A DNA stretch of 20,443 nucleotides from a virus (Duplodnaviria > Heunggongvirae > Uroviricota > Caudoviricetes). This document shows, one piece after another, positions 15,001 to 20,443 of this stretch; the first letter of the stretch is position 1; every line of letters begins with the position of its first letter. A program made the position numbers. The DNA lies in IMG/VR virus record IMGVR_UViG_2778261540_000005, positions 1-20,443 of that record; one strand, written 5' to 3'.

Positions 15001-18000
15001 AAGTATGCGCACCGCCTGCTCTCCCGATGGTTTATGCAGTGACGGCAATGGCCTTGAGCTGAAATGCCCGTTTACCTCCCGGGATTTCATGAAGTTCCGG
15101 CTCGGTGGTTTCGAGGCCATAAAGTCGGCTTACATGGCCCAGGTGCAGTACAGCATGTGGGTGACGCGAAAAGATGCCTGGTACTTTGCCAACTATGACC
15201 CGCGGATGAAGCGTGAAGGCCTGCATTATGTCGTGGTTGAGCGGGATGAAAAGTACATAGCGAGTTTTGACGAGATGGTGCCGGAGTTCATCGAAAAAAT
15301 GGACGAGGCACTGGCTGAAATTGGTTTTGTATTTGGGGAGCAATGGCGATGACGCATCCTCACGATAATATCCGGGTAGGCGCGATCACTTTCGTCTACT
15401 CCATTACAAAGCGAGGCTGGGTATTTCCCGGCCTTTCTGTTATCAGAAATCCACTGAAAGCACAGCGGCTGGCTGAGAAGATAAATAATAAACAGGAGGA
15501 TATATGAGTCAGGTTGGTAATCATTCATTCGAATTTCCGGCATCGCAAGGTGTACAGGGTGGTACTGTTACACTCTTCCTTACCATACCAGGAAGATCGC
15601 TGGCTCGTTTCCTCGCTTCAGATAATTACGGCCATACACTGGAACGCTCTCAGCGAGAAATTAATCCAAATCGAGTACGAAAATTTTTAAATTATCTCAC
15701 TAACGCAGACTCAAGAAATGAGCCTTTTATCATTCCCCCTCTCGTAGGTAACTGTGATTCGAATATAGAATTTGTACCGTTTGGCAACACAAATGTTGGT
15801 ATAGCCAGAATTCCCCTCGACGCCGAAATAAAACTTTTTGATGGTCAACATCGTGCAGCTGGCATTGAGATATTTTGCCGAAGTTCCCCATCAACGCTCA
15901 TGGTTCCCATGATGCTTACAATGAATCTGCCGCTAAAAACCCGGCAGCAGTTCTTTTCGGACATAAATAACAACGTTTCTAAGCCATCAGCGACCATCAA
16001 TATGGCGTATAACGGCCGGGATGATATTGCTCAGGGAATGATATCCTTCCTGACCCAACATACTGTATTTGCCGATATAACCGATTTTGAACACAACGTA
16101 GTGCCATTAAAAAGTAATATGTGGGTGAGTTTCAAGGCACTCACTGATGCAACGTCAAAGTTCGCTAGGAACGGCAATCAACAACTTGAAATGGGATATA
16201 TAGAATCTGTCTGGGAGGCATGGATTACACTAACTCAGATTGACTCAATCCGACATGGTGTACACCACGCTACGTACAAGCGCGATTATATTCAGTTCCA
16301 TGGAGTAATGATTAACGCTTTCGGTTTTGCGGTTCAACAGATGATGGTTAATCATTCCATCGCAGAAATAACTTCTATGATCGAAAAACTATGTGCAACT
16401 ACCAGCTCTGCAGAAAGAGAGGATTTTTTTCTGATGGATAACTGGGCGGGGATCTGCACGAAAGCCAGCCAGGAAAAACTATCTGTTATTGCCAATGTGG
16501 CAGCGCAGAAAGCAGCAGCAAACAGACTGATACAAGCTTTTACCAAAGGAAGTCTGGAATCAACTTAATGAATCAACATTGTCTCATATCAGCATGCTGT
16601 ACGGCGTCTTTAAGGAACGGTGAGCATGAAAAACAAAATCATCATGGAGCTACAGGCTCTTTTTTTATTATTCGCATTCACCCTCAAGCGTATTAACCAA
16701 CAATTCAGGGATTAATGAAAGATGGCAGACATCATTGATTCAGCATCAGAAATTAAAGAATTACAGCGCAACACAGCAATAAAAATGCGCCGCCTGAACC
16801 ACCAGGCTATATCTGCCACTCATTGTTGTGAGTGTGGCGATCCGATAGATGAACGAAGACGCCTGGCCGTTCAGGGTTGTCGGACTTGTGCAAGTTGCCA
16901 GGAGGATCTGGAACTTATCAGTAAACAGAGAGGTTCGAAGTGAGCGAAATTAACTAGAAGCCAAAGATAAAATCATCGCTGAGCAGGAGAAAATCGCTAA
17001 CGGAGAAAAGACAGTAAGTCAGTATATGAAAACCGCATGATATCATCAGATAAAAATCGATCGTAAAGCGAAATATTAATACCAGAATAAACGAGTCGAG
17101 GTAAATTATATTACCTCGATAAATTAACTAAAACTTGCCCGCTATATACTATCTCATTCAGTATCATCACGCGCGGTCTGTGCATATGTCACTACCGCAC
17201 CTAATGTATTAATTTTCTTTTCAACATAGATAATATTATCGTACTCATAATTGCCATACGGATAGCAAATGCGAATATTCTCATGTAGATCGGGGTCATC
17301 CACCTCAGCTCCAGAACAACTTTTTGAACTACCGGAAGTATACCGATACGGTGCAACATAAGACGATGTATCTCCAGGCAAAAAATAAGTTAGTGTTGTA
17401 AGAGGTATAATCAGAAAAAATCCAGCAAATATGCACATCCCTGCATAAACCTTAAGGTATGCTGACAGACTCTTCCAGCCGCTTTGTTTTACTATCCCCT
17501 TCTTAACCCAAAACAGAGATAACAGAAAAGCTATTCCCATGCTAAACAGAATGTAATAGTGGGATATACTCTGATTAAGAAACGTGACCCTGTAAATATC
17601 TGCCCGCCACCAGAAGAAAAGGAAAATAAAGATCAGGCCTGAAACTGTCATGCAAATCAAATAAGGATACGAATCTTTTTTCATGTTTAGCGCCCATAAA
17701 ATTTTTCCTGCCCCGGACAAATTTACCATCCATTTTTTGCGCAGAAAATAGCTCATTACTTACTGCACAATAATACACAAAATTGCGTAAATTTTTTGCA
17801 TGGATTTTAGCTCTTTCAGCCGACGTTTAAGGGGTAAATAGCATTTCCTAAAAGCAACTGCACCAACCCAACAGAATGAGCTACCGCTTACGTTGAGAGC
17901 AAAAAAGTGTATAGCAGCAATGAACAGCATCCTCGCACTGACGGGGATTTCTTTTATCTGAGCTCGCTACGGCGAGTTTTGTTTTATGGAGACAAGAAAT

Positions 18001-20443
18001 GTCAGATTTGGCTATGAAGGTTTTGAAATGGCAATCAACTGGCGATGTCGGCATCAGTAGCGCAACTCTTGCCTCAATCGCATGTGGCCTGAAAAAGAAT
18101 ATCTATGGTCATCACTTCGGCGCTCCCCATGACGCAGCAGACTTTCGGCGATGCGTTGCACTTGTTGAGCAGATTCCAGAAATCAGAGATTCATTCGACA
18201 AGGTTGCAAAGCGCGTTCCGGCATTCAAAGGAATCCTCAACGAATGGGATTCACTCGTTGCTCTGTTGAAGTCTGAAATGAAGACGTACGGGAACAAAGC
18301 ACCAGAGACTTACAGAAGAATCAGCGAGCTACGCAAGGACTAACCCGCCTCACACTCGATGAGGCATTTTCATTTATCAAGATATCCAGACCTACCATCG
18401 CCGCATCAATGCGGTTTTTTTATTACCTGATTTGCAGGTTCGATTCCCTATTCGGAGATAGCACTCATGCAACACGAACTACAGCCTGATTCCCTGGTTG
18501 ATTTGAAATTCATCATGGCTGATACTGGCTTTGGTAAAACCTTCATCTACGACCGGATTAAGTCCGGCGACCTGCCAAAAGCCAAAGTTATCCACGGGCG
18601 AGCAAGATGGTTATATCGTGACCATTGTGAATTCAAAAATAAGCTCTTAAGCCGCGCCAATGGGTAAAATAGCGGGTAAAATATTTCTCACACCTAAAAA
18701 ACACCATTCCAATCAATCCCCTGCCGCTTCAAGTAGATGTCTGCAGGGGACACCAGATACCCTTCAAACGAAATCTACCTTCACCCCGTAAAAGATAGGT
18801 TTGGCAGCACACTTGCCTTATATCTACTCATTTTTACTGCAACAGGTTGAAATCTCAGCACTGTCAGAAAGCGCTGATGACTAAACAGCCCTGGGCCGGG
18901 CGATGTAACCATCACACAGAATCCTGATAGCGAAATATGGCGTGACTCGATACTTCACTCCGCAATGCATTCCTTGATGAATTCGCAGGACCGTGATACA
19001 CGGGACAGGTCGCTGAATGACGACAATGTCCTGGAAATCAGCGAACCGCGCATCTGAAGTACATTTGAGCGACTGTACCAGAACATGAATGAGGCGTTTG
19101 GATTAGGTGATTATTAGCAGGGCTAAGCACTTTAGTATTATTATTTTCCGGTTGAGGGATAGGGAGATATCGACAACAACCGGAAAAGTTTACGTCTATA
19201 TTGCTGAAGGTACAGGCGTTTCCATAACTATTTGCTCGCGTTTTTTACTCAGGAAGAAAATGCCAAATAGCAACATCAGGCAGACAATACCCGAAATTGC
19301 GAAGAAAACTGTCTGGTAGCCTGCGTGGTCAAAGAGTATCCCAGTCGGCGTTGAAAGCAGCACAATCCCAAGCGAACTGGCAATTTGAAAACCAATCAGA
19401 AAGATCGTCGACGACAGGCGCTTATCAAAATTTGCCACGCTGTATTTGAAGACGGATATGACACAAAGTGGAACCTCAATAGCATGTAACAGCTTCACTA
19501 ATGAAATAATCCAGGGGTTAACGAACAGCGCGCAGGAAAGGATACGCAACGCCATAATCACAACACCGATAAGTAATGCATTTTTTGGCCCTACCCGATT
19601 CACAAAGAAAGGAATAATCGCCATGCATAGCGCTTCGAGTACCACCTGGAATGAGTTGAGATAACCATACAGGCGCGTTCCTACATCGTGTGATTCGAAT
19701 AAACCTGCATAAAAGACAGGAAAAAGTTGTTGATCAAAAATGTTATAGAAAGACCACGTCCCCACAATAAATATGACGAAAACCCAGAAGTTTCGATCCT
19801 TGAAAACTGCGATAAAATCCTCTTTTTTTACCCCTCCCGCATCCGCCGCTACGCACTGGTGATCCTTATCTTTAAAACACATGTTGATCATCATAAATAC
19901 AGCGCCAAATAGCGAGACCAACCAGAAGTTGATATGGGGACTGATACTAAAAAATATGCCGGCAAAGAACGCGCCAATAGCATAGCCAAAAGATCCCCAG
20001 GCGCGCGCTGTTCCATATTCGAAATGAAAATTTCGCGCCATTTTTTCGGTGAAGCTGTCAAGCAAACCGCATCCCGCCAGATACCCCAGGCCAAAAAAGA
20101 GCGCCCCCAGAATTAGACCTACAGAAAAATTGCTTTGCAGTAACGGTTCATAAACGTAAATCATAAACGGTCCGGTCAAGACCAGGATGAAACTCATACA
20201 CCAGATGAGCGGTTTCTTCAGACCGAGTTTATCCTGAACGATGCCGTAGAACATCATAAATAGAATGCTGGTAAACTGGTTGACCGAATAAAGTGTACCT
20301 AATTCCGTCCCTGTCAACCCTAGATGTCCTTTCAGCCAAATAGCGTATAACGACCACCACAGCGACCAGGAAATAAAAAAGAGAAATGAGTAACTGGATG
20401 CAAAACGATAGTACGCATTTCTGAATGGAATATTCAGTGCCAT

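Follow-up and report, generated by a model that had tools for sequence, protein, structure and literature searches.

The early-left (pL) operon of phage lambda contains intrinsic terminators (tL1, the tL2 cluster and tL3) that are overridden by N antitermination. In the KplE1 (CPS-53) prophage of E. coli K-12, torI is reportedly silenced by Rho-dependent termination. Early in lytic growth, lambda expresses its exo-xis genes from pL along with N (PMC9239242). The distal end of this block, the tL4 region, is described in annotated sequences: GenBank M60848 (phage 434) lists 'terminator t-L4', ORF55, ORF114 and "terminator t'-I", GenBank X51962 (HK022) lists a 'tL4 terminator', and Table 4 of Bloch et al. 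2014 (PMC4195576) gives the ARNold-predicted lambda terminators t3_lambda, t4_lambda and t5_lambda, with t4_lambda written as TTTTATCTGAACTCGC TACG GCGGGTTTTGTTTTATG. As far as can be verified, both the tL4 annotations and the ARNold predictions derive from sequence, and our literature search on 'tL4' found no paper with experimental termination data.

Here we analysed a 20,443-nt stretch of viral DNA (IMG/VR record IMGVR_UViG_2778261540_000005, positions 1 to 20,443; the window), which is a lambdoid prophage whose torI end is of the KplE1 type. Its + strand is the early-left (pL) operon, with kil, gam, bet, exo, DUF1317, a DndB-like gene and orf73/TraR from about 12960 on, and also carries the repressor, ORF114 and torI. 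The features of the distal part are as follows.

16646..16669, + strand: operon-internal terminator-like hairpin GGAGCTACAGGCTCT followed by TTTTTTATTA, upstream of orf73/TraR
17154..17756, - strand: 200-aa predicted membrane protein ('ORF-22+' / 'putative membrane protein' of phage 434)
17929..17957, + strand: hairpin 1, stem 17929-17935/17942-17948, loop CACTGA, T-tract TTCTTTTAT
17960..17985, + strand: hairpin 2, the hairpin of the preliminary description; homologue of t4_lambda, near-invariant in about 120 loci
17988..18001, + strand: Shine-Dalgarno sequence and start of ORF114 (GGAGA 17988-17992, ATG 17999)
17999..18343, + strand: ORF114 (114 aa), name and 345-nt length as in the annotated ORF114 of phage 434
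18347..18365, + strand: hairpin GCCTCACACTCGATGAGGC directly 3' of the ORF114 stop codon, weak T-tract, z = -3.85
18400..18422, + strand: hairpin GCCGCATCAATGCGG followed by TTTTTTT, z = -2.92, 45 nt before torI
18467..18667, + strand: torI, KplE1-type excisionase (recombination directionality factor)

torI closes the operon ahead of the prophage end. ORF114 belongs to phrog_1229 ('unknown function') and had no match in Pfam, NCBIfam or PDB; its structure model is confident and all-alpha, and no structural neighbour was found. The 200-aa gene has its own terminator-like hairpin at 17119-17096 (-). This gene lies on the minus strand, and consequently no + strand gene immediately precedes hairpins 1 and 2. 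The preliminary description had stated that no plus-strand coding gene lies upstream, which is true locally but not overall, since the + strand is the early-left operon from about 12960 on. Between the candidate pL (about 12963) and kil, searches detected neither an N-like gene nor a nut/put element. The pL leader (12800-13310) likewise showed no N-like gene and no homology to HK022, and functional relatives are built in the same way. A 37-nt tandem repeat lies in the leader, within 12990-13305. No tRNA genes were found in the window.

Hairpin 2 has a core stem of ctcgc (17963-17967) and gcgag (17972-17976) on the + strand, closed over a tacg loop (17968-17971) that forms a UACG tetraloop on a C-G pair. 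The T-tract TTTTGTTTT (ttttgtttt, 17977-17985; 8 of 9 U) lies directly 3' of the stem, which a consensus scan extends to 8 pairs (17960-17979). The RNA was predicted to fold at -11.9 kcal/mol, compared to -4.8 +/- 1.7 kcal/mol for 200 dinucleotide shuffles (z = -4.13), none of which (0/200) folded as well. Its exact 23-mer is found a single time in the window and in none of 100 shuffles. On the minus strand at the same site the T-tract is absent and the predicted fold is weaker. Sequence and folding thus confirmed a hairpin where the preliminary description had placed one before ORF114, and the distance from the T-run to the start codon was 13 nt, close to the approximately 14 nt noted there. 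A stable GC-rich stem-loop, a U-rich tract and co-orientation with the operon are the features of an intrinsic terminator, and with its GC core, UNCG-type loop and 8/9 U, hairpin 2 is predicted to be a canonical Rho-independent terminator. On a d'Aubenton-Carafa-type score, here a T-tract-weighted heuristic, the hairpin 2 core reached +15.7, compared to +17 for t'I and -15 for the window's weakened hairpin 1. Terminator-like sites were enriched around the locus, with 8 in 16500-19500 (2.7 +/- 1.4 expected) and 20 in 10200-18700 (7.7 +/- 2.7 expected); several of the latter share the operon's orientation.

Comparison with other lambdoid phages revealed the identity of the element. Over 17757-18350 the window matches phage 434 (M60848) at 96% identity, as two segments interrupted by orf55, and in phage lambda both hairpins lie between ea8.5 and orf55. 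Hairpin 2 is homologous to the predicted Rho-independent terminator t4_lambda (PMC4195576), which bears out the earlier label of 'terminator-like'. It differs from lambda, 434 and HK022 at two stem bases, with pairing kept in both. Hairpin 1 (17929-17948, then TTCTTTTATC), 31 nt upstream of hairpin 2, had been overlooked in the preliminary description. By sequence comparison, hairpin 1 is the homologue of 't-L4' of phage 434, 'tL4' of HK022 and t3_lambda. Its fold (-8.6 kcal/mol; z = -2.45 against shuffles) is that of the weaker 434-type version, compared to -13.1 kcal/mol for the lambda version. The GenBank records apply the name tL4 to hairpin 1 only; a name for hairpin 2 is given in the ARNold table alone. 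Further downstream, the hairpin at 18347-18365 is kept in 434, HK022 and K-12 KplE1, and that at 18400-18422 is the homologue of the annotated "t'-I" terminator upstream of phage 434 xis. The operon-internal hairpin at 16646-16669 is close to t2_lambda, from which one stem base differs.

About 120 related loci carry hairpin 2, and in these the hairpin, the T-tract and the following Shine-Dalgarno sequence are nearly invariant, with 97% of cells paired. Stem variation was confined to U-A or U-G (about 55 versus 50), wobble-compatible single changes with no double-sided compensatory ones. Selection at the level of sequence and recent common descent would thus account for the conservation equally well, and covariation neither proves nor disproves the fold. 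Across the loci, at least four different hairpins occupy the hairpin 1 slot with the T-tract the same. In 77 of 92 loci the hairpins come just after the end of a + strand open frame of 50 codons or more, which is where a terminator is classically found, and the other 15 have no + strand gene ending there, as in the window. The ORF that follows the cassette was orf55 in 58 of the 92 loci, ORF114 in 19, a 99-aa ORF in 9, an 81-aa ORF in 4, and others in the remainder. In the window, hairpin 2 adjoins ORF114 only because orf55, a gene that 434, HK022 and lambda all carry, is absent; the junction GGAGA|CAAGAA marks its site. Upstream, homology among the phages starts at 17903, 17917 or 17929 (where the hairpins begin), and the sequence beyond is unrelated or mosaic. 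The element is common in E. coli: 2490 of 5426 complete genomes, nearly half, have a match to 17757-18010. The structure, statistical support, homology, orientation and modular context of the hairpins are all matters of observation.

Together, these results suggest, with a probability that we put at roughly 80%, that hairpin 2 is the downstream member of two tandem Rho-independent terminators (the 'tL4' region) that stop unmodified leftward transcripts before ORF114 and torI and are read through in lytic growth. Termination itself is what we infer from the features above, and read-through by antitermination is proposed by analogy. A + strand polymerase lacking the antitermination modification, arising from leaky pL transcription or from an adventitious promoter within or near the 200-aa gene on the opposite strand, would transcribe the GC stem and U-tract and release its RNA at about 17950-17957 or 17980-17986. 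The hairpins at 18347-18365 and 18400-18422 would act as backup, so that the four hairpins jointly would keep ORF114, and most importantly torI, from being expressed in the lysogen. Once the prophage is induced, polymerase that has acquired resistance to termination at the operon's start, a resistance that in lambda comes from N and nut, would read through and allow expression of ORF114 and torI. The element may thus be said, in a loose sense, to limit ORF114 and torI expression, as an operon-internal terminator under processive antitermination rather than as a local attenuator. Four successive terminator-like hairpins (17929, 17960, 18347 and 18400) lie between torI and the rest of the prophage, in keeping with the general rule that lysogens insulate excision functions from stray transcription.

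In this reading, the cassette of hairpin, U-tract and Shine-Dalgarno sequence is also a joint common to lambdoid phages, where gene modules are swapped. We consider it unlikely that this is its main role, such that hairpin 2, the U-tract and the Shine-Dalgarno sequence form a module linker (a recombination site or a hitch-hiker) or a U-rich translation-initiation region with little termination. The near-invariance of the cassette between mosaic flanks, the location of the orf55 deletion junction exactly within the repeated T-tract/GGAGA motif, the missing covariation of hairpin 2 and the weak pairing of the U-tract with the Shine-Dalgarno region predicted for read-through RNA are all consistent with such a role. 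Against it stand the canonical terminator features and their co-orientation with the operon. The hairpin 1 slot, moreover, retains a hairpin and T-tract despite replacement of its sequence, which points to selection on structure. The linker and terminator roles are not exclusive, and the comparative data provide a clean example of terminator/Shine-Dalgarno linkers as seams of lambdoid mosaicism. It is distinctly improbable that the cassette is more than a terminator, either as a selected exchange joint for modules or because the terminated products are Hfq-binding regulatory RNAs in lysogens. Such RNAs, if they exist, would be the 3' end of an ea8.5-type mRNA or, in 434-type phages, a transcript of the 17757-17928 spacer.

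The preliminary description had also proposed that the hairpin ends a small plus-strand RNA. In this reading, which applies to the 434-type context with its divergent upstream gene, a + strand RNA some 150-190 nt long would start from a promoter in 17757-17928, stop at hairpin 1 or 2 and act in trans. Small RNAs typically finish in a hairpin with a U-tail, no + strand gene ends before the hairpins here (as in the 15 of 92 loci above), conservation of the spacer is 93-100% across 913 E. coli genomes, and a weak promoter-like match, TGCACA-18-TAAATT, lies at 17764-17793 on the + strand. Yet that relaxed match is no better than background and a stricter scan of the + strand over 17757-17998 was empty, with the proviso that consensus scans of this kind cannot exclude a promoter and gave weak matches on both strands. 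The putative RNA body is not conserved with the terminator, as the homology breakpoints at 17903, 17917 and 17929 indicate, and the 77 of 92 loci with a same-strand open frame ending ahead of the hairpins likewise speak against a dedicated small RNA. Rfam gave no match over the whole window at gathering thresholds, and at E <= 10 the segment 17650-18480 yielded only chance-level hits to Arrc14, ncS025 and isrK (E = 3.1, in the ORF114-torI spacer). The identical intergenic region is present at 892.5-893.0 kb of E. coli O157 Sakai, in prophage Sp3, where the homologous segment is NC_002695 892,667-892,908 on the minus strand, and the Hfq-CRAC small RNA table for that strain has no entry there (Tree et al. 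2014), a weak negative given that the table covers Hfq-bound RNAs under few conditions. An independent small RNA is thus unsupported and very unlikely.

The other earlier proposal, a gene-specific attenuator of ORF114 whose leader switches between terminator and antiterminator folds on a signal (leader peptide, ligand or protein), was largely refuted by the comparative data. The hairpin and U-tract do end 13 nt before the start codon and a 36-codon GTG frame (17907-18017) spans both hairpins, but we hold such an attenuator to be extremely improbable: the identical cassette with its T-tract and Shine-Dalgarno sequence precedes orf55, ORF114, the 99-aa, 81-aa and other ORFs (at least five unrelated ORFs) with no constant gene association, ORF114 in 434 and HK022 follows another hairpin, after orf55, the 36-codon frame has no Shine-Dalgarno sequence and is absent in lambda-type contexts, the MFE and centroid folds both retain hairpins 1 and 2 with no mutually exclusive or strongly competing fold, the sole alternative pairing read from the sequence (hairpin 1 5' arm with hairpin 2 3' arm) still gives a hairpin before the same U-tract, and Rfam contained no riboswitch or leader match.

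The locus was compared with four known systems. The Hfq-dependent prophage small RNAs of pathogenic E. coli (AgvB/AsxR, HnrS, the Pas sRNAs and StxS) are, like the proposed small RNA, short and end in an intrinsic terminator, but they have no sequence or Rfam similarity to the element and, where their position is given, lie in the late-gene/Q-moron region or near structural genes rather than in the exo-xis/xis region; HnrS and the Pas sRNAs are in late or structural phage regions. The lambda terminators tL1, tL2 and tL3 resemble the window's hairpins as intrinsic terminators, clustered or in tandem within a long early operon, that are expected to stop unmodified and pass modified polymerase. 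They differ in having no sequence relationship to these hairpins, and in that no N gene or nut site was found in the window's prophage. KplE1 shares the recombination module, with torI at the prophage end, and the logic by which termination upstream of the excisionase would maintain the prophage, whereas the window's elements are intrinsic hairpins and termination in KplE1 is said to be Rho-dependent. In K-12 KplE1 the t'I hairpin is degenerate, and a tL4/ORF114 block was not evident within 470 nt upstream of torI. The closest match is the tL4 pair of 434, HK022 and lambda. The window differs from it in that the excisionase is the KplE1-type torI, not a xis of the lambda type, with no int next to it, and in the absence of orf55, which leaves hairpin 2 directly before ORF114, as it does in 19 of the 92 related loci. 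The two share homologous sequence, two tandem hairpins about 31 nt apart, a location where the exo-xis block ends, ahead of orf55/ORF114 and the excisionase, and the same strand relative to pL. By homology to the annotated or predicted tL4, t3_lambda and t4_lambda and by its identical map position, the locus is the tL4 pair. The hairpin is thus an ordinary, already described lambdoid feature and not a new regulator, and its significance beyond correct annotation is small.

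The hairpin reported just ahead of ORF114 was found exactly where the preliminary description had placed it, with a ctcgc arm at 17963-17967, a tacg loop, a gcgag arm at 17972-17976 and ttttgtttt at 17977-17985. A consensus scan gave this hairpin (hairpin 2) a stem of eight pairs and detected another one upstream (hairpin 1), absent from the earlier account. The elements around the gene start are:

17929-17948, plus strand: hairpin 1, followed by TTCTTTTATC
17960-17979, plus strand: hairpin 2, full stem
17988-17992, plus strand: SD motif GGAGA
17999, plus strand: ATG of the 114-codon ORF (ORF114)

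The RNA fold of hairpin 2 was -11.9 kcal/mol compared to -4.8 +/- 1.7 for shuffled sequences (z = -4.13; 0/200), and that of hairpin 1 was -8.6 (z = -2.45 against shuffles). Both hairpins were retained in the MFE and centroid structures of a 101-nt context, and eight terminator-like sites were observed in 16500-19500 compared to 2.7 +/- 1.4 expected. The hairpin is real and non-random, and is one half of a tandem element. A shared CTCGC in the 5' arms and similar T-tracts suggest that the pair arose by an old duplication. The UACG loop of hairpin 2, closed by C-G, is one of the stable UNCG tetraloops. A heuristic terminator score, a re-implementation after d'Aubenton-Carafa et al. 1990, was +15.7 for the hairpin 2 core, +17 for the t'-I terminator homologue (t'I) at 18400-18422 and -15 for the weakened hairpin 1 of the window. 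Because the score is positive for hairpin 2 and negative for hairpin 1, hairpin 2 may be the more effective terminator of the pair in this prophage.

The 871 bases around the hairpin match several E. coli chromosomes at 100% identity, and the RefSeq annotation there consists of two hypothetical proteins and torI. The wider annotation is that of a lambdoid prophage, in agreement with gene-family searches of the window:

Minus strand: replication proteins O and P, YdaT, Cro-like protein
Plus strand: repressor, kil, gam, bet, exo, DUF1317, DGQHR/DndB-like gene, orf73/TraR
After orf73/TraR: 200-aa gene (minus strand), then the 114-aa gene and torI
Past the prophage end: chromosomal csc and dsd genes

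The plus strand is therefore the early-left (pL) operon, with torI, a KplE1-type excisionase, at its distal end. The earlier statement that no plus-strand coding gene lies upstream of the hairpin holds for the immediate neighbour, the minus-strand 200-aa gene, but not for the wider operon.

Several other loci in this region were recorded. Directly 3' of the cI-like repressor, at the place that rexAB holds in lambda, 11383-12785 (plus strand) encodes a DUF6932 protein (157 aa) and a 310-aa protein. The two match both components, A (E = 7e-43) and B (E = 4e-42), of PDC-M63, a candidate defence system in PADLOC; they are probably a defence cassette carried by the prophage and expressed during lysogeny. 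Within the exo-xis block, 15504-16568 (plus strand) is a lone DGQHR/DndB-like gene (Pfam DndB, E = 4e-46; PADLOC DndB, E = 4e-37); no other dnd gene was found in the window. The 200-aa gene (17154-17756, minus strand) encodes a predicted membrane protein and is oriented against the operon. It has its own terminator-like hairpin (17119-17096, minus strand) and weak minus-strand promoter-like sites (17831-17804 and 17800-17770). It is the counterpart of 'ORF-22+'/'putative membrane protein' in phage 434 and of ECs_0804 in Sakai Sp3, and only the C-terminal 88 residues of its product have a PHROG match (phrog_1416, of unknown function). The gene resembles a moron and could be expressed in the lysogen.

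To compare loci, we scanned IMG/VR for the 16-mer TTTTGTTTTATGGAGA and added reference loci to the resulting sample. Among at least 128 sites (IMG/VR matches listed plus reference loci), hairpin 2 was present in at least 121 and nearly invariant, the sole common variation being GCGAG versus GCGGG (about 55 versus 50), which exchanges a U-A pair for U-G. Over the 32 distinct variants among the matches listed, 97.3% of hairpin 2 cells paired and no pair changed on both sides, so that covariation gives the fold no independent proof. The hairpin 1 slot, in the same matches, held ATCCTCGC..GCGGGGAT, AACCTCG..CGAGGTT, ACCCGC..GCGGGT or CCGC..GCGG, each hairpin type followed by an identical TTTCTTTTAT; one locus class had no convincing hairpin there. 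Because such varied sequences precede the same T-tract, selection for a hairpin as such is suggested. The gene 3' of the cassette (hairpin 2, T-tract and SD) also varied.

Genes 3' of the cassette in 92 loci from the matches listed
orf55: 58/92
ORF114: 19/92
99-aa ORF: 9/92
81-aa ORF: 4/92
Other ORFs: remainder

On the 5' side, a plus-strand open frame (>=50 codons) terminated just before the hairpins in 77 of these 92 loci; the other 15, of the 434/window type, had the divergent 200-aa gene instead. Homology of E. coli genomes to the window begins at 17903, at 17917 or at 17929, where hairpin 1 starts, and homology to 434 and HK022 ends in the t'I T-tract, where the torI module starts. These breakpoints make the terminator/SD cassettes the seams of the mosaic.

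In lambda, terminators within an operon halt unmodified polymerase, and polymerase that has been modified at the start of the operon passes them. Hairpins 1 and 2 are best read as a tandem intrinsic terminator of this kind within the pL operon, at which unmodified polymerase would stop and modified polymerase would pass. The pair and two further hairpins (18347-18365 and 18400-18422) separate torI from the rest of the prophage. Early expression of the lambda exo-xis genes is pL/N-dependent (PMC9239242). The stretch from the candidate pL (about 12963) to kil contained no N-like gene, in the window or in functional relatives, and no similarity to HK022 was found in this leader. The candidate pL is bordered by ACAAC-type repeats, and the leader layout is common to the functional relatives PhiR47_2, 4A7 and Lambda_4C10. 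The leader also holds, directly 5' of the kil-like ORF (13215-13301, plus strand), 2.4 copies of a 37-nt unit, TACGGGCAGAAGTCTCTATATGTTCAGCAGCCCAGCT, at 96% identity.

A pure linker or translation-initiation role, with no termination, is possible and is compatible with a terminator role. A stand-alone small plus-strand RNA ending at the hairpins, as first proposed, is not supported, and is a possible but improbable reading in the 434-type context: promoter prediction, suggested at that stage and since run, gave no convincing promoter, the body is not conserved across the loci compared, no Rfam family matched, the identical Sp3 locus has no entry in the Sakai Hfq-CRAC table, and known EHEC/EPEC prophage sRNAs, where positions are described, lie in late-gene or structural regions. 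The other initial proposal, an ORF114-specific attenuator, is contradicted by the variable downstream gene among the loci listed, by 101-nt context folding, which found no competing fold, and by the lack of any leader or riboswitch match in Rfam.

The initial term 'terminator-like' was apt. Homologues of the two hairpins are annotated or predicted as terminators in known phages. In a search of phage records, 17757-18350 aligned with phage 434 as two separate pieces at 96% identity. GenBank M60848 (434) lists, in order, 'terminator t-L4', ORF55, ORF114, "terminator t'-I", xis and int, and X51962 (HK022) carries 'tL4 terminator'. Both labels span the homologue of hairpin 1; that of hairpin 2 lies directly 3', ahead of the orf55 SD. 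In phage lambda this arrangement recurs between ea8.5 and orf55; hairpin 1, hairpin 2 and the hairpin that follows orf55 are there the ARNold-predicted Rho-independent terminators t3_lambda, t4_lambda (TTTTATCTGAACTCGC TACG GCGGGTTTTGTTTTATG) and t5_lambda (Bloch et al. 2014, PMC4195576, Table 4); t2_lambda of the same study closely resembles the window hairpin at 16646-16660, with one stem base different. Unlike 434 and HK022, the window lacks orf55: at the junction TTTTATGGAGA/CAAGAAATG, the hairpin 2/SD motif is fused to a motif that resembles it, the T-tract/GGAGA found ahead of ORF114 in those phages. The O157:H7 Sp3-type prophage is the converse, with orf55 present and ORF114 absent. Between ORF114 and torI, the window (18347-18422, plus strand) has two hairpins that also occur in the spacer ahead of xis in 434 and HK022; an isrK match to the window spacer, below the Rfam threshold (13.7 bits, E = 3.1), is probably due to chance. 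In K-12, where torI is likewise a KplE1-type excisionase, the KplE1 spacer (2195-2265 of the segment read) has the first hairpin intact and a degenerate t'I, GCCGTCATAGAGCGT versus GCCGCATCAATGCGG. The element is thus already known, through annotation in 434 and HK022 and prediction in lambda. It is also extremely common: 2490 of 5426 complete E. coli genomes contain a match.
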